From the IMG/VR virus record IMGVR_UViG_2695420732_000017: a stretch of 8,182 nucleotides of DNA, one strand, 5' to 3'. Both the position numbers and the translations under genes were made by a program. The notes below the pieces were generated by a model, which was not told the DNA's origin, did not search any database, and worked only from the letters and a program-made list of their open reading frames with translations. This DNA comes from a virus (Duplodnaviria > Heunggongvirae > Uroviricota > Caudoviricetes). How positions within the stretch are numbered: the first letter of the stretch is position 1; the number at the start of each line of letters is the position of its first letter. Below are positions 1-7,370 of this stretch, piece by piece.

Positions 1-363
1 GCACTGGAGCAGGCGTTGTGGGCCCGTCGGCCGTCCGGCACAATCCATCACAGTGATAAAGGTTCTCAGTATGTATCGCTGGCCTACACGCAGCGGCTTA
101 AGGAAGCCGGATTACTGGCATCAACAGGGAGTACTGGCGACTCGTATGACAACGCGATGGCTGAGAGCATCAATGGTCTTTACAAAGCGGAGGTAATACA
201 CCGTAAGAGCTGGAAAAACCGGACAGAAGTGGAACTGGCCACACTAACGTGGGTGGACTGGTATAACAATCGACGATTGCTGGAAAGGCTGGGCCATATT
301 CCTCCGGCAGAAGCAGAAAAAGCTTATTATGCTTCCATCGGAAATAATGATCTGGCAGCCTGA
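1..363 (+). CDS. IS3-family transposase OrfB (DDE integrase core), C-terminal part; 5' end lies outside the window
   Basis: The reading frame is open from base 1 to the TGA at 361-363. The translation contains HSDKGSQY (second catalytic Asp) and YDNAMAESINGLYK (catalytic Glu followed by Lys seven residues later), the signature of the IS3-family DDE transposase C-terminus. G+C is about half, unlike the adjacent AT-rich island. Confidence 0.85.
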   Translation, partial: ALEQALWARRPSGTIHHSDKGSQYVSLAYTQRLKEAGLLASTGSTGDSYDNAMAESINGLYKAEVIHRKSWKNRTEVELATLTWVDWYNNRRLLERLGHIPPAEAEKAYYASIGNNDLAA

Positions 364-430
364 GTTCACAGATAAAATACTCTCCAGGAAACCCGGGGCG
401 GTTCAGTTTGCCAATTTTTGCGATATAAAT
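1..430 (+). mobile_element. Right-hand portion of an IS3-family insertion sequence; exact terminal inverted repeat not determinable from one end
   Basis: The transposase gene ends at 363 and an IS3-type terminal repeat normally follows within a few tens of bp. The composition switches to AT-rich by about 410-430. The boundary is approximate because the other IS end is not available to pair with. Confidence 0.45.
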
Positions 431-483: not shown

Positions 484-1581
484 ATGACAATTTCATATAT
501 TCCTATTCTGAAAGCGAAACGTTCTGAGTTATCAGCTTTATCGCAGCTATCCATTGAAAAGAAATCAAAAATTTTGCCATTACTCGAAATTGAACCAGTG
601 CCAATTGACCCTGATTCAGGTATTGCCTTAAAGAGTTATAACGAGACTCTTATAGAGTTCGGAAAGAAAGTCTCAAAATCTTGCTCAGATATGCAAGGTG
701 TTTATATTGATGGATTATTAATTGAAGAGCATTTTATTTCTCCTGAAGATCATTACCCTATAATAAATGCGGTTAATCAAGTTAGAGATATGGGGATAAG
801 AGTTATTCCTGTCAGTTCACCAACTCGCCCATCTAACTATAAAAGAGCGATTGATGAATTAATGCAGAATGAAATATGCTTGAGATTAACCACGTTAGAT
901 CTGGTTAACCCACAATTAATAACGCATTACATTAATCATCTGGGAATTCCTTTATCAAATATTGATATAATTATTGACTTAAGAGATGAGTTAACCGAGG
1001 ATAAAATTAATTCCGGCGAACTATATACTTTGGCAATGGGATTGATAAACAATCTGGCGCACCTCAATGAATACAGAAAAGTGATTCTTTCTGGGGGTTC
1101 ATTTCCTACAGATCTCAGTGATATTTCTGTTGGTCTATATTCTCAACCTCGAATCGAGTGGATTTTATGGCAGAGTTTAATGAATAGAAAAGAACTTGCC
1201 AGAAATGTGATTTATAGTGATTATGGAGTACAGCACCCCGACTTTAATAGGCTTTCGACGCGATTCCCTAGCGTATCTGCCAGCGTCAGATACTCTGGAG
1301 ATAATGACTTTTGGGTATTTCGAGGAAGAGTAGCTAATCGCTTTGGTTATGAACAATATGGTAAACATAGTGAGGATATTCTTGCTCATCGAGAATATTC
1401 AGGGCCTACATTCTGTGCGGGAGATAGAGACATAGAATATTATGCAAACGAGTATCAAGCCTACAAAGCCAATCCCTCTGGTAACTATAAATTTGGTAGC
1501 CCAGAGGTATGGCGTAGGATTGGGCAAAACCATCACATAACTAAGGTTGTTGAGCAACTCGCCACTCTTTACGGGCTTTAA
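484..1581 (+). CDS. Beta-protein-like (Pfam Beta_protein / NCBI sce7725-family-like) protein of unknown function, 365 aa
   Basis: ATG at 484 is the first start after an in-frame TAA (472-474), with an AAGG Shine-Dalgarno 7 nt upstream. Clean 365-codon ORF, strongly AT-rich (roughly one-third G+C by eye). The N-terminus TISYIPILKAKRSELSAL matches, from memory, the hallmark start of the Beta-protein / sce7725 family. The family call is unverified. Confidence 0.75.
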   Translation: MTISYIPILKAKRSELSALSQLSIEKKSKILPLLEIEPVPIDPDSGIALKSYNETLIEFGKKVSKSCSDMQGVYIDGLLIEEHFISPEDHYPIINAVNQVRDMGIRVIPVSSPTRPSNYKRAIDELMQNEICLRLTTLDLVNPQLITHYINHLGIPLSNIDIIIDLRDELTEDKINSGELYTLAMGLINNLAHLNEYRKVILSGGSFPTDLSDISVGLYSQPRIEWILWQSLMNRKELARNVIYSDYGVQHPDFNRLSTRFPSVSASVRYSGDNDFWVFRGRVANRFGYEQYGKHSEDILAHREYSGPTFCAGDRDIEYYANEYQAYKANPSGNYKFGSPEVWRRIGQNHHITKVVEQLATLYGL

Positions 1582-2119
1582 GTTTAACTCGAACAGCTTC
1601 ACGAAGCTCGCCAACATCCATACTATTGGCGAGTTTTGACCATAAGACGCGTTTAGGTTTATTTTTCAAATTCTGTAGCTCCCCTACATCACTTAATAGG
1701 GAAAGCAATTCATCTTTCCAAAGAAGCATTGTTAAGGAAAGTTTGTCCACTTGTGGATTCAACTTGCTAGTTCGAATTGTTTTTAAATGGATACCTTGCC
1801 GTGCACCTTGCGTAACTTGCTTTATCCCCCACCATGATGGAACTATGCTTAAAGCATCATAAAGATGGCAATCAGAGACAACCAAAGTTACTTTATCCAT
1901 CACTGATGAGTAATGTTGCACCTGCGCTGGTAATCTGAGCAAGTTATCACTCTTGCTCTTCAACTCATAACCATGTATAAGCCCATTGATCACTGCTATA
2001 TCAGCTCTGCTAGCCCCTAGATTCATCGTAAACTCATCAATGATTAGGGTGTCAGGATCTTTATGATGATCTCTCAGAATCTTGGCATGCACAGCCTTTC
2101 TTACATCAATGTCTCTCAT
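1541..2119 (-). CDS. PD-(D/E)xK nuclease-fold protein (sce7726-family-like), 192 aa
   Basis: Open frame on the minus strand with ATG at 2119-2117 and an in-frame stop six codons upstream; stop codon at 1543-1541. N-terminal motifs IIDEF (E29), RADIAV (D40) and GYELKS (E52-x-K54) have the spacing of a restriction-endonuclease-like PD-(D/E)xK core. AT-rich like its neighbour. Shine-Dalgarno is weak. Confidence 0.75.
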   Translation of the reverse strand: MRDIDVRKAVHAKILRDHHKDPDTLIIDEFTMNLGASRADIAVINGLIHGYELKSKSDNLLRLPAQVQHYSSVMDKVTLVVSDCHLYDALSIVPSWWGIKQVTQGARQGIHLKTIRTSKLNPQVDKLSLTMLLWKDELLSLLSDVGELQNLKNKPKRVLWSKLANSMDVGELREAVRVKLKARKEWRVAQQP

Positions 2120-2158
2120 ACCATAGTTGCGCTTTCATCGACTCTCTCAAGCCATGAT

Positions 2159-2167
2159 TCTATATCA
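2159..2167 (-). promoter_or_regulatory. Possible extended -10 element (TGaTATAGA) for an independent promoter of the nuclease-like gene
   Basis: On the minus strand the sequence TGATATAGAAT lies about 40 nt upstream of the ATG at 2119, inside a 305-bp ORF-free gap. No convincing -35 was found, so this is tentative. Confidence 0.3.
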
Positions 2168-2424
2168 TGGTTCGCATGAATGCCATTTGATATGACCAGT
2201 GGTTAAACATTGCACAGAAAAGTGGATGTGTATTTTAACAAAAGCAATGACGGCTAACCATGTTGGTATGTCGATAAAATGTTTCAACGTAAGCATTATC
2301 TGTTCCGCCCTTTCAGACGGCCTCCTGATGTTCTGAGGGTGCAGAATCCCTCCGGTTAAGGATTTAATAAAAATCGTTTCTGATTTAAATCTTCAGTATT
2401 TAGTTGTTAGTCGGTTTATAGCCT

Positions 2425-2736
2425 TTATGCTTCGGCCTTATTTCTCAGCCATACACAAACCGGGCCATCTTCGGTGTCATGTATTGAACCAATAAACCAT
2501 CCATTGCCCTCTGGTCGTTCCGGTTCCCATGCAGAAATATCAGCATCACACGCATCAAGGTCAGCACATCCTTCATCTCTGAAGCAGAGGACGTATTGAA
2601 GATTATTTTCCTCCATCCAGGCGTTAAACTCTTCCGTTGAAATATATTCCCGACCGTCACAGAATTTTTCATATTCAGGATGCGTCCAGCAGCCATATTC
2701 ATCACGTACTACTGGTATTTCTTTAATTTCATTCAT
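2425..2736 (-). CDS. Hypothetical acidic, Cys-containing prophage protein, 103 aa
   Basis: ATG at 2736 sits inside the sequence ATGAATGA, overlapping the stop of the upstream gene by 8 nt (translational coupling). G+C near half, like the prophage backbone. No recognisable domain. Confidence 0.7.
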   Translation of the reverse strand: MNEIKEIPVVRDEYGCWTHPEYEKFCDGREYISTEEFNAWMEENNLQYVLCFRDEGCADLDACDADISAWEPERPEGNGWFIGSIHDTEDGPVCVWLRNKAEA

Positions 2737-2983
2737 TTCTGTTCTCCCACGTTTTCAGACTTTCACCACAGAACGGACAAAATGAAACCCGAACTGGTAA
2801 TTTAGAAAATTCACCGGAACGCAACATCACAAAATCAGGACCGCGAGTTAAACTCTCATTCCAGATTTTGTATATCAGCAGACCTTTTCGCATCGTGTAT
2901 TCAGCATCATGCTCAAGGGACTTTGCCAGTGCTGCACATGGTTCTATCTTGTTGCCATTAACCTGGCATTTTGATTCACTCAC
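2729..2983 (-). CDS. Hypothetical small protein with a C-terminal CPFCG zinc-ribbon-like motif, 84 aa
   Basis: GTG start at 2983 overlaps the TGA of the upstream gene (GTGA) and is preceded by a strong GAGGAGG Shine-Dalgarno 7 nt upstream. Cys residues at positions 6, 16, 69 and 72. Confidence 0.65.
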   Translation of the reverse strand: MSESKCQVNGNKIEPCAALAKSLEHDAEYTMRKGLLIYKIWNESLTRGPDFVMLRSGEFSKLPVRVSFCPFCGESLKTWENRNE

Positions 2984-3402
2984 CGCACCACCTCCTCAAA
3001 ATTCCCCTGATAAAACGCCAGTACGCGCTGCATAACTTCGCTCTTCCGGCACTCGAGACAGATTATGTTCAGACGCCTGTCGTAGCGGCGTATTTCGCCA
3101 TCTGGTAATGACCAGATAAGGTCCGGATCAACCGCAGATGGTTTCTTCAGCTTTGCCCTTGAGAGTTTTTTGCGGGCATTTTGCCAGTCTTTACGAGCCT
3201 GTTCAGACGGGAATAACCCGTAGCCAGAATTGTATACATCGCCACTGGCAACCAGCTCTCTGGCCAGAACGCTCATCAGATATCTTGTTGCCCCAGTTTT
3301 AGTTTCCAGTTGTCGTAACGTCTCGCGCCCACTCTGGCGTACGAGTTCAACAACCTGCCCTTTAATTTTTTCCCGCTCTTCTTGTGTAAAAACTTTTGCC
3401 AC
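2980..3402 (-). CDS. Hypothetical prophage protein, 140 aa, basic
   Basis: GTG start at 3402 is preceded by AGGAGG with a 4-nt spacer. The gene lies directly downstream of the replication initiator in the same operon orientation. Confidence 0.7.
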   Translation of the reverse strand: MAKVFTQEEREKIKGQVVELVRQSGRETLRQLETKTGATRYLMSVLARELVASGDVYNSGYGLFPSEQARKDWQNARKKLSRAKLKKPSAVDPDLIWSLPDGEIRRYDRRLNIICLECRKSEVMQRVLAFYQGNFEEVVR

Positions 3403-3442
3403 AAGCCCTCCTGAAAGTTACCTCATGACCAGAAATTAACAC

Positions 3443-4405
3443 TTACCCCCTGAAGCCCGGCGGAATTTCAGTGTCCGGTTCAGAAATGTGATTCACGCAA
3501 CGCTGCGCAGGCGAACGCCCCAGGCGGATAACCAGTTCATCCCATTTTTCCCGGAGTTTTGCCGGACTCATGATGTTTTTTACCCAGAACGAATCCCGCT
3601 GGAGACGCCCAAACATTTCACAAATTTGTCTGTGAGTTCTGCCATCCAGCATCCGCATTGTGCGAACGTCATTGGCCCATGCTGTCCAGTTGGGTTCTTT
3701 CGGTCTAGTGATCTCGCCATCATAGCTGGCCGCCTGCTCGTAAAGACTCACGATTCGTCCCCAGATCCACTGTGCGCACACCAAATCTTCCTGACTTCCC
3801 CACTGGCGTTTTTTCGCACTGAACACAACCGCGTCAGGGTGTCGGGTTAAAAAATCCTGTTCAGCCGTCTGCGGGTCCGGTTGCGAAGCGTCCGGACAAG
3901 AAGATCTTTTATCTGACGGATCAGGTTTTAATACTGACGGATCGGGGTCAATCATCGCCCCCCTAATCGGCAGTTTTTTATCAACAGTTGATCCATCAAA
4001 ATTTGACGGGTCAACCGTTGAGGGGGCAATATTTGACGGGTCAACTGTTAACTGGTCATTTTTTGCCGGGCTAATTTTTCTTTTCGGTTTATATGACTCA
4101 CGCGCCGCCGCAGCTGCTGCTTCGAGTTTTTCCACATTAAGCCGATAGATATTGCTTACATTACGCCCACCGACCTTACGCTCTTCCTTCGTCAGCCAGC
4201 CCTCTTTCGCCAGTTCTGCAATAGCCGATTTCACTGTGGATTCACTTCTTGCACCGATCTGACGCCGGATAGTTTCAATGGCAGGCCATGACACACCCTC
4301 GTCATTGCTGTAGTCTGCAAGACGGGCCATAACCGCCACCCTGGATAAGATCATGCCGGTGAAGGCGCACCCTTCCCAGACAAGACCATGAAGCTTGCTG
4401 CTCAT
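3443..4405 (-). CDS. Phage replication initiator, lambda O-like architecture (N-terminal winged-helix/HTH, repeat-containing linker, C-terminal domain)
   Basis: 320-codon ORF from the ATG at 4405 (a GTG at 4420 is an alternative start), with a GGGGG Shine-Dalgarno just upstream. The N-terminal segment WPAIETIRRQIGARSESTVKSAIAELAKEGWL is HTH-like. The central region encodes repeated TVDPSN / DPDPS units from DNA direct repeats, as seen in lambda O where the origin lies inside the gene. Confidence 0.8.
   Translation of the reverse strand: MSSKLHGLVWEGCAFTGMILSRVAVMARLADYSNDEGVSWPAIETIRRQIGARSESTVKSAIAELAKEGWLTKEERKVGGRNVSNIYRLNVEKLEAAAAAARESYKPKRKISPAKNDQLTVDPSNIAPSTVDPSNFDGSTVDKKLPIRGAMIDPDPSVLKPDPSDKRSSCPDASQPDPQTAEQDFLTRHPDAVVFSAKKRQWGSQEDLVCAQWIWGRIVSLYEQAASYDGEITRPKEPNWTAWANDVRTMRMLDGRTHRQICEMFGRLQRDSFWVKNIMSPAKLREKWDELVIRLGRSPAQRCVNHISEPDTEIPPGFRG
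3912..4095. repeat. Putative replication origin: four direct iterons (core TGACGG(A/G)TC) plus an adjacent AT-rich stretch, inside the initiator gene
   Basis: TGACGGATC occurs at about 3914 and 3935; the longer TTTGACGGGTCAAC(C/T)GTT occurs at about 4001 and 4031. An AT-rich tract (about 4055-4095: cattttttgccgggctaatttttcttttcggtttatatga) lies beside them. Confidence 0.55.
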
Positions 4406-4427
4406 AAAACCCCCGAACACCGTGCTT

Positions 4428-4853
4428 TTAGTGCATCACCACAGCATTCCCTGCCGGGCCGCCGCGATTCATCTGGTCATACAAAACAACCGCTGACGCA
4501 ACAAAATCGTCGACATCCTTCACCAGCCGATCCCGCCGTTCGACAATCTCCCGGTAATACTCAGAGCTGTGACTGCGCATACGGGCCACCAGCAGAGGCG
4601 GCATTGCCTTTTCGATCGCCGGTAACAGAGCCTGAATTTTTTCAACAGCATCAGGGGTGTCTTTATCCAGCCAACGGAAAATTTTCTGTGTATTACGGGC
4701 CAGGGCTTCCGGATGGCTGTCGTCGTACAGTTCAGGGAACGTCATCCCCAGTTCGAAATAAGTCCGGGCTATTTCAGCTGCAGGAACTTTCTCACCATCA
4801 GGGTATGCCCAGGCATTCATCGCCATGCGGATGTGCTCATGTTTGATTTTCAT
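4428..4853 (-). CDS. ydaT: YdaT-like prophage protein (recalled as DUF1019 / Toxin_YdaT family), 141 aa
   Basis: The N-terminus MKIKHEHI and C-terminus ...VVMH match my recollection of Rac prophage YdaT. The gene overlaps the upstream ydaS-like gene by 17 nt. Confidence 0.7.
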   Translation of the reverse strand: MKIKHEHIRMAMNAWAYPDGEKVPAAEIARTYFELGMTFPELYDDSHPEALARNTQKIFRWLDKDTPDAVEKIQALLPAIEKAMPPLLVARMRSHSSEYYREIVERRDRLVKDVDDFVASAVVLYDQMNRGGPAGNAVVMH

Positions 4854-5160
4854 GAATCATTTGCCTCTTGATGCTTCGGGTATGATCGTTTTCGTCATTT
4901 GGTTGCTTCATCGACATATTCTGCGAATAACATGACGAGCGTCGTAAGTATGTCCAATCAACATCAGGACGAAGTTCTTCACACAGGACACCACCTTTTG
5001 TTGCTCGTTCAATCGCAGGACATCTCTCAGCAGGCAACTGACGTACACCTTTGATCCATTGATTTACGCTTGGAGGAGATACACCTAAAAGCCTAGCCAT
5101 TGCTGATTGCCCACCGACAACAGCACAAGCTCGTTTGAATGAATAGTTATCTTTTTTCAT
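4837..5160 (-). CDS. ydaS: YdaS-like Cro/CI-type HTH protein (Cro analogue), 107 aa
   Basis: ATG at 5160 is preceded by GGAG with an 8-nt spacer; the ORF track's longer version begins at a GTG at 5181 with no ribosome-binding site. The HTH segment QSAMARLLGVSPPSVNQWIKG is typical of YdaS-like proteins. The gene is divergent from the repressor gene. Confidence 0.75.
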   Translation of the reverse strand: MKKDNYSFKRACAVVGGQSAMARLLGVSPPSVNQWIKGVRQLPAERCPAIERATKGGVLCEELRPDVDWTYLRRSSCYSQNMSMKQPNDENDHTRSIKRQMIHENQT

Positions 5161-5187
5161 CGAATGAACTCCAAAAAACACGCAACA

Positions 5188-6953: not shown

Positions 6954-7012
6954 TTTTCTGGTGACGTTTGGCGGTATCAGTTTTACTCCGTGGCTGCTCT
7001 GCCGCCCTTTTT
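6954..7012 (+). ncRNA. dicF: DicF small regulatory RNA (Hfq-dependent antisense sRNA of the dicB operon) with its rho-independent terminator
   Basis: The sequence tttctggtgacgtttggcggtatcagttttactccgtggctgctctgccgcccttttt matches my recollection of E. coli DicF almost base for base. The 3' end has a GC stem (GGCGG...CCGCC) followed by TTTTT. It sits between the ydfC-like gene and dicB, as in Qin. Confidence 0.75.
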
Positions 7013-7181
7013 AAAGTGAATTTTGTGATGCGGTGAATGCGGCTATGCGCACGCGGAACAGTTAAAACCAAAAACAGTGTTATGGGTGGATTCTCTGTAT
7101 CCGGCGTTAATTGTTAACTGGTTAACGTCACCTGGAGGCACCAGGCACTGCATCACAAAATTCATTGTTGAGGACGCGATA

Positions 7182-7370
7182 ATGGAAACGTTATTACCAA
7201 ACGTTAATACGTCTGAAGGTTGTTTTGATATTGGTGTTCTGCTCAGTAACCGGGAGTTTACTGAAGATGCCATTAAGATGAGAAAATATGAACCTTATCT
7301 TCTCAATGATAATTCCATACTTTCCAGAATTGCCCTTCTTGAACTTGGTATTATCGGAGAACAGCAGTGA
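7182..7370 (+). CDS. dicB: DicB-like cell-division inhibitor (MinC-dependent), 62 aa
   Basis: ATG at 7182 with AGGA 7 nt upstream. The N-terminus METLLPNVNTSEGCF matches my recollection of DicB. The 62-aa size and position directly after DicF agree. Confidence 0.7.
   Translation: METLLPNVNTSEGCFDIGVLLSNREFTEDAIKMRKYEPYLLNDNSILSRIALLELGIIGEQQ

Follow-up and report, generated by a model that had tools for sequence, protein, structure and literature searches.

Why should two genes that face one another in a prophage run on into each other's coding sequence, and what might account for the persistence of such an arrangement? The question is raised by an 8,182-nucleotide stretch of viral DNA (IMG/VR virus record IMGVR_UViG_2695420732_000017, Caudoviricetes), the whole of which we refer to as ‘the window’. 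Here, a gene of the Beta family and a gene of the sce7726/cII family converge from opposite strands and share their 3' ends, as follows:

484-1581, plus strand: Beta-family gene, encoding 365 amino acids; stop codon TAA at 1579-1581.
1541-2119, minus strand: sce7726/cII-family gene, encoding 192 amino acids; stop codon TAG (in the minus-strand reading) at 1543-1541.
1541-1581, both strands: convergent overlap of 41 nucleotides (nt), from the list of open reading frames (ORFs) and the sequence itself.

We find that the overlap is genuine, ancient and held in a fixed register, with the functional coding cores of the two genes abutting back to back, with zero spacer between them. Our favoured explanation, which we consider probable, is that it belongs to an ancient architecture, passed on by descent within a mobile module of two genes; a compact junction that has become ‘frozen’, with conflict eased by terminators embedded in coding sequence. 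The module itself is the common core of the gop-beta-cII locus of P4 and of some PD-lambda-2-type loci, here in a variant that is gop-less.

The convergent overlap described in the first-pass annotation is real: both ORFs and both stop codons are present in the sequence, and in E. coli O121 RM8352 and O103 ML775 RefSeq/PGAP annotates the identical two coding sequences (CDSs), again overlapping by 41 nt. The 1.8-kb module is carried by 93 of 5426 complete E. coli genomes, with an identity of at least 99% in 92 of these, and is also found in phage Rac-SA53. Within the shared segment, the stop codon of each gene is preceded by 12 whole sense codons and by 2 nt belonging to a 13th, and the overlap is in phase 1, with first codon positions opposite one another and second positions opposite third. 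A description of this as the ‘most constrained antisense frame’ was dropped, the phase being phase 1 (wobble opposite second position). This phase is reported to be the commonest among natural convergent overlaps of more than 4 nt (bioRxiv 10.1101/2025.11.07.687268) and, as the wobble position of one gene faces the second position of its partner, both proteins are able to vary fairly independently.

Both gene products fall into recognised families. The plus-strand protein matches Pfam Beta_protein (PF14350) at 178.3 bits (gathering threshold 27) across profile positions 1-341 of 342, and the PADLOC model PD-Lambda-2_C at 1.8e-41, but the PADLOC model for P4 ‘beta’ only at 2e-4; a TIM-barrel-like fold is predicted for it. 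The minus-strand protein matches NCBIfam sce7726 (NF033832) at 191.1 bits (curated cut-off 70) across profile positions 1-183 of 184, a family to which cII of P4 also belongs (151.4 bits). Its residues D40, E52 and K54 are invariant among 40 homologues, and its AlphaFold2 (AF2) model matches 3dnx, Can2, NucS and restriction enzymes; the predicted fold is that of a PD-(D/E)xK nuclease, which bears out its earlier description as nuclease-like. Alignment of homologues reveals a conserved C-terminal motif in each protein: LKxRxxWR in sce7726, with K181 and R183 invariant, and HHITKVVxQL in Beta. A sequence search of the PDB returned nothing for sce7726 and a single, spurious match for Beta (E 0.87); and, as regards the NCBIfam ‘sce7725’ partner model, the Beta proteins of the window, Sorangium, Nannocystis, Stenotrophomonas, Brevibacillus and P4 had no NCBIfam match.

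How widely is the arrangement shared? An alignment search with sce7726, allowing one genome per species, gave 446 matches, the best 80 of which were retained, and hidden Markov models (HMMs) of both families were then run on the stop-to-stop ORFs of these 80 loci. Both genes are present in 77 (two of the remaining three stop at a contig edge), and all 77 pairs are convergent. Seventy-five overlap, by between 11 and 158 nt, and as every length equals 2 modulo 3, they do so in a single phase; the other two have small gaps instead (+39 nt in L011 and +14 nt in L012). The loci come from Enterobacterales, Vibrionaceae, Aeromonas, Xanthomonadales, Burkholderia, Bradyrhizobium/Afipia, Azospirillum and myxobacteria, and further from Bacillota, Acidobacteriota, Chloroflexota, Saccharimonadia, Komeilibacteria, Melainabacteria, Armatimonadota and Gemmatimonadota. 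A second, independent set of loci, found via Beta in viral contigs, paints the same picture: of 44, 43 are convergent and share 20-140 nt in the same phase. The overlap is thus kept in related loci, a point on which the first-pass annotation had hinged, and the pairing of Beta with sce7726 is near-obligate from both sides. The sole exception among the 44 (L114; 2992-3828 and 5499-6050) carries an inversion that split Beta, such that the 3' part still convergently overlaps sce7726 and the 5' part lies 1.2 kb off, on the other strand.

These data dispose of the suggestion that a sequencing error, a frameshift or over-annotation has lengthened one ORF artificially. It is true that the final residues of both proteins vary between lineages, as might be expected of such an artefact, but the identical sequence occurs in dozens of independent complete E. 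coli genomes, and over 100 related loci, drawn from many phyla, repeat the convergent orientation, overlap, phase and register, which is far beyond chance. Moreover, the conserved cores meet at 1558-1561 (see below), so that an overlap stays wherever the stops happen to fall. We therefore reject the idea, to which we attach a vanishingly small probability.

To define the register, the codons for Beta H351 and sce7726 W186 were used as anchors, placed by hmmalign. The distance between the two, centre to centre, is exactly 28 nt in 67 of 76 loci, and this register spans Enterobacterales, Xanthomonadales, Burkholderia, Bradyrhizobium, myxobacteria, Bacillota, Acidobacteriota, Chloroflexota, Saccharimonadia and Melainabacteria; the exceptions are whole-codon shifts (31, 52 or 67 nt), apart from L012, whose genes are separated and where the distance is 40 nt. 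Variation in the length of the overlap is due solely to the position of the stops, that of Beta falling 11-56 codons past H351 and that of sce7726 1-40 codons past W186. Positional entropy was then calculated for the 60 unique loci in the 28-nt register, and is given here as means at the first, second and third positions of the Beta-frame codon:

1414-1539, Beta-only region: 1.38/1.35/1.77; Beta pattern, third position free.
1540-1557, under the sce7726 tail: 1.26/0.87/1.79; Beta pattern as before.
1558-1563, junction: 1.14/0.06/0.24; second and third positions constrained.
1564-1581, under the Beta tail: 1.14/1.49/0.92; sce7726 pattern.
1582-1692, sce7726-only region: 1.55/1.88/1.29; sce7726 pattern.

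In the last two zones the second position is the freest because it corresponds to the wobble position of sce7726. Constraint leaves the Beta frame abruptly, and passes to that of sce7726, at 1558-1561. The same boundary is drawn by the last conserved segment of each protein:

1531-1560, plus strand: Beta H350-H351-I-T-K-V-V-E-Q-L359, under the sce7726 tail; Beta periodicity to about 1557.
1559-1582, minus strand: sce7726 L180-K-A-R-K-E-W-R187, under the Beta tail and stop; sce7726 periodicity from about 1561.

The codons for Beta L359 (1558-1560) and sce7726 R187 (1559-1561) have just 2 nt in common, and it is here that the two conserved cores meet. What lies beyond, Beta residues 360-365 and sce7726 residues 188-192, appears clearly to be ‘passenger’ sequence, dictated by the partner's core. 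Beta 360-361 read A/S and then N/T/S/I because the opposite strand must encode R187-W186; the TAA of Beta is made from the sce7726 codons L180 (CTT) and K181 (AAA); and the enterobacterial Beta end, ‘LYGL’, mirrors the conserved LKARxxWR of sce7726. As to whether the two tails are conserved, a matter raised in the first-pass annotation, the answer is therefore a divided one: both C-terminal regions are, through the motifs given above, but the extreme ends are unconstrained in their own frames. A natural E. coli variant, G1549A, fits with the sce7726 tail being dispensable, as it makes a conservative change in Beta (V356I) and converts sce7726 Q191 to a stop, with the loss of two residues and a shortening of the overlap from 41 to 35 nt. 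The variant is carried by L095, L096 and L105, which are otherwise near-identical E. coli prophages.

The first-pass annotation also held that there is no room for terminators between the two genes. At the junction this is correct, as the cores abut and no terminator fits between them; terminator-like hairpins are, however, found within the partner ORF. In the window, a consensus terminator scan flagged nothing in or adjoining the overlap, and also passed over the following feature:

1602-1638, plus strand: candidate embedded Beta terminator within the sce7726 ORF, a hairpin followed by UUUUG, with an 8-bp core stem (1606-1613/1625-1632).

This hairpin sits 21-57 nt beyond the Beta stop, with a core free energy (dG) of -10.3, and the region 1575-1700 folds with a z-score of -2.64. 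Relatives were scanned with a home-made test, which looked no more than 200 nt downstream of the Beta stop for hairpins of dG -12 or below accompanied by a U-tract. Such structures are present in 20 of 71 unique loci, against 1-8 in each of seven control windows and 4-7 in each of three shuffles; with lineages collapsed at 80% identity, the figures become 14 of 55 clusters (~25%) against 39 of 550 pooled controls (~7%; Fisher p 8e-5). The same scan showed no enrichment downstream of the sce7726 stop. Some of these hairpins, which are stronger than that of the window, are textbook terminators, as in Stenotrophomonas, with a 13-bp GC stem (dG -25.8) followed by AUUUUU. Taken together, there is moderate evidence that many lineages end Beta transcription within the partner ORF.

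Eighteen of the 24 hairpins map to sce7726 residues ~144-174, with sequences that differ among lineages. In several lineages, the codons for the conserved sce7726 motif R-G-L-K-S-K-P-R (residues ~145-157) are self-complementary and so give rise to an embedded hairpin on the Beta-sense strand, with CGUGG/CCACG in Photorhabdus and Xenorhabdus, and GGCUUGC/GCAAGCC in Bacillota (loci L004/L005, L047, L049, L052 and L059); protein motif and RNA hairpin may each constrain the other. A stricter form of the scan, which used fixed windows and called for both ends to be paired, was discarded as too restrictive, having missed even perfect 13-bp stems.

On this evidence, each ORF continues through the conserved C-terminal coding sequence of its partner until the partner's codons permit a stop. 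The two genes would be transcribed independently and convergently, such that each mRNA 3' end would be antisense to the other; Beta transcripts would probably stop at the hairpin/U-tract inside the sce7726 ORF, and those of sce7726, without an intrinsic terminator, would run antisense into Beta until met by Rho or by a collision. A regulatory explanation is not needed for the fixed register and orientation, because insertions or deletions off the single junction would damage a conserved core.

It might be argued, along the lines of the reciprocal regulation of a toxin-like nuclease put forward in the first-pass annotation, that the overlap is instead a selected cis-antisense device, in which convergent transcription and an RNase III-sensitive 3' duplex would tune Beta and nuclease reciprocally, with a drop in Beta freeing sce7726. 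Convergence is indeed invariant (77/77 and 43/44) and is found in P4 despite the loss of overlap; the embedded terminators, being enriched on one side only, would delimit a discrete antisense segment; mscL/arfA, convergent genes with complementary 3' ends, set a precedent (PMC10070815); and the related gop-beta-cII and PD-lambda-2 systems act via abortive infection (PMC9122126, PMC9519451, bioRxiv 10.1101/2023.04.06.535777). Purifying selection on abutting cores, together with shared descent, would nevertheless account fully for both register and orientation; lineages with separated genes persist (L011, L012 and P4, and with cores apart in L013-L016); the embedded terminators are equally explicable as a means of limiting antisense read-through; and the folding of the overlap RNA (1530-1600) is unremarkable on either strand (z -1.5 and -0.1). 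We regard such a device as possible, but on the whole rather doubtful.

Our preferred explanation, that of an inherited and frozen junction, has its own difficulties, and several observations weigh against it. The overlap is not obligatory, as the genes are separated in L011, L012 and P4, and in the L013-L016 clade 39 nt have been inserted between the cores. The AF2 model carries the terminal helix of Beta as far as residue 363, so that the Beta tail may matter to the protein. The hairpin of the window is modest, with only four U residues as well as its limited stability, and was missed by the consensus scan; some 75% of lineages are without an embedded terminator by the criteria used, and the U-tracts in that region are in part the antisense of conserved Lys codons. 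Finally, promoters, 3' ends and antisense effects are all deduced from sequence.

The pair occurs as an isolated two-gene insert in unrelated contexts, which include a Rac-like prophage, the P4 hotspot, integrase-adjacent islands and PD-lambda-2 operons; other neighbours of the related loci (integrase, FRG-domain, S24/HTH repressor and MnmE genes) are likewise unrelated. No general third gene was found upstream of Beta or of sce7726, and no small upstream gene is kept in most of the related loci. This mobility, and a pairing that is near-obligate from either side, could be taken to mean that the overlap ‘welds’ the genes into a single unit of horizontal transfer, in which a breakpoint that removes one harms the other. 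Only the last few conserved residues are shared, though, which gives little linkage beyond mere adjacency; L010 retains an intact sce7726 after loss of Beta; and the idea would explain maintenance rather than mechanism. We think it quite improbable.

L010 (4001-4567), from Xenorhabdus koppenhoeferi, is the only complete locus without Beta among those surveyed: its sce7726 is intact, with D...ExK, there is no Beta homologue downstream, and co-directional, unrelated ORFs come next. It speaks, though weakly, against the idea that sce7726 is a toxin that is lethal unless Beta is present, and the two genes are convergent rather than in one operon, as opposed to the co-transcribed pair of a type II toxin-antitoxin system. 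Separately, seven contigs (L020-L025 and L029, from Bradyrhizobium, Afipia and ‘Bordetella parapertussis’ metagenome-assembled genomes) carry an identical module with identical flanks, which suggests either a mobile element of very recent origin or a sequence that is a common contaminant.

Turning to the setting of the pair, its neighbours (YdaS, YdaT, DUF977, a RacR-like repressor, DicB and DicF) are those of a Rac/Qin-like lambdoid prophage, and the YdaS/YdaT-like and RacR-like genes, together with DicF and DicB, mark it as a cryptic prophage of the Rac/Qin type in E. coli. The relevant features are:

1-404, plus strand: right end of an IS3 element, with an rve-domain ORF at 16-363; homology to IS-free E. 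coli (lacking the insertion sequence) begins at 405.
2157-2186, minus strand: weak sigma-70-like promoter match, by consensus only, 38 nt upstream of the sce7726 start.
6956-7007, plus strand: DicF antisense small RNA (Rfam RF00039, 75 bits).
7077-7370: DicB ORF, adjoining DicF.

In an IS-free genome, the pair stands alone as an insert of two genes, with hokD on one side and the prophage replication genes on the other, and in IS-free E. coli loci 557 nt of non-coding DNA lie upstream of Beta. In the window, this native hokD-Beta intergenic region (as in O103 ML775) has been replaced, with the IS3 end lying 80 nt upstream of the Beta ATG (O121 strains have an IS3 ~430 nt further upstream); with this insertion, the strain may have lost its Beta promoter or acquired another in its place. 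Promoter-type matches in the region do not, in total, outnumber those in shuffles.

On its other side, sce7726 points the same way as the prophage early/replication operon that lies upstream of it (2120-5181, minus strand), which encodes a YdaS-like cro, YdaT, an HTH (helix-turn-helix) replication protein and DUF977. The 305-nt gap has no predicted terminator, so prophage early transcription could read through sce7726 and on, antisense, into Beta. This invites a bolder form of the antisense proposal, a selected, phylum-wide cis-antisense switch built on the zero-spacer, fixed-phase junction, whereby Beta transcription, with its end at a terminator embedded in the nuclease ORF, would continuously silence the mRNA of sce7726 by collision and by a duplex at the 3' ends, and phage-induced loss of Beta, or read-through from the prophage early genes, would free the nuclease. 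We judge it unlikely; if true, it would amount to a protein-coding analogue of type I toxin-antitoxin control, and the gop-beta-cII and PD-lambda-2 defences would have it in common as a core so far unrecognised. The interest of the locus is high only if antisense coupling is functional.

With the frozen-junction explanation in mind, what is new here? Both families, the related defence systems and the RefSeq names of both genes are already known. Searches of the literature for sce7726, PF14350/Beta_protein and gop-beta-cII turned up annotation mentions and three defence papers, and the overlap is undescribed in the searchable literature. Four aspects did not turn up there: the way in which the Beta and cII/sce7726 cores are joined tail to tail, phylum-wide and in a fixed phase; the two-gene form that stands alone, with neither Gop nor HigB/peptidase, as seen in most loci; the overlap of sce7726 with the 3' end of Beta in the 13 loci that have PD-lambda-2 genes upstream; and the embedded terminator-like hairpins. 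The locus also offers an unusually clean example of a natural, long-lived convergent CDS-CDS overlap, in which the selected strand is visible nucleotide by nucleotide, and it matters in that Beta and cII-like proteins form part of two validated, yet mechanistically obscure, anti-phage systems, P4 gop-beta-cII and PD-lambda-2. The known toxin parts of these (Gop in the one, HigB plus peptidase in the other) look like ‘add-ons’ to the Beta/sce7726 pair.

How, then, does the pair compare with known systems? gop-beta-cII of P4 is an anti-phage (abortive infection) system that gives protection from lambda and P1 (PMC9122126; Ghisotti 1990 as cited there; Rousset 2022; Silas 2023 preprint), and its trigger is a phage accessory gene (bioRxiv 10.1101/2023.04.06.535777); Gop is toxic when Beta is missing, and in P4 it is Gop, not cII, that Beta neutralises (PMC9122126). 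The window resembles P4 in coupling a PF14350 Beta gene to a convergent sce7726-family gene on a mobile element of E. coli, but is without gop, for which its ORFs gave no PADLOC match. Furthermore, P4 cII has 264 amino acids, with a C-terminal extension of ~80, as against 192 for sce7726 here; and in P4 (M27748, L082; cII 1746-2540) the genes do not overlap but are separated by a 30-nt gap with an annotated putative terminator, the cores being ~320 nt apart rather than abutting.

PD-lambda-2 consists of a HigB-like A, an HTH-M78 peptidase B and a Beta-like C (Vassallo 2022, PMC9519451), the last of which is needed for defence and not for toxin neutralisation (PMC9519451). The Beta protein of the window is of the PD-Lambda-2_C type, but A and B are absent from the window ORFs, as judged by PADLOC models. 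Conversely, sce7726 is outside the published three-gene definition of PD-lambda-2, and the published clone, which ends ~396 nt past gene C, is too short to hold the whole of sce7726. A PD-lambda-2 B (HTH-M78 peptidase) gene nevertheless lies upstream of Beta in 13 of the 77 related loci, in every one of which sce7726 overlaps the 3' end of Beta:

PD-lambda-2 B-bearing loci: L019, L040, L046, L055, L056, L071-L075, L077, L079 and L081.

Two of these 13 were scanned with PADLOC, giving B at 1e-130 or better and a HigB-like A at ~1e-32 to 1e-40; an A-like gene is present in seven of the 13, and also in L045 and L080. sce7726 may therefore be an unrecognised neighbour, or even a component, of PD-lambda-2-type systems.

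Other convergent pairs include the type I toxin-antitoxin txpA/RatA and convergent restriction-modification genes. A further example is mscL/arfA, a convergent, cross-regulating pair that, like Beta and sce7726, is placed tail-to-tail with unavoidable antisense complementarity at the 3' ends (PMC10070815). In that case, however, the complementarity is between a 3' untranslated region and a CDS, and is enriched mainly in Enterobacterales, whereas here it runs from CDS to CDS, involves conserved cores and is fixed in register across phyla. Likewise, the pair shares phase 1 with convergent overlaps in general, but differs from these in having kept both register and phase over very wide taxonomic distances.

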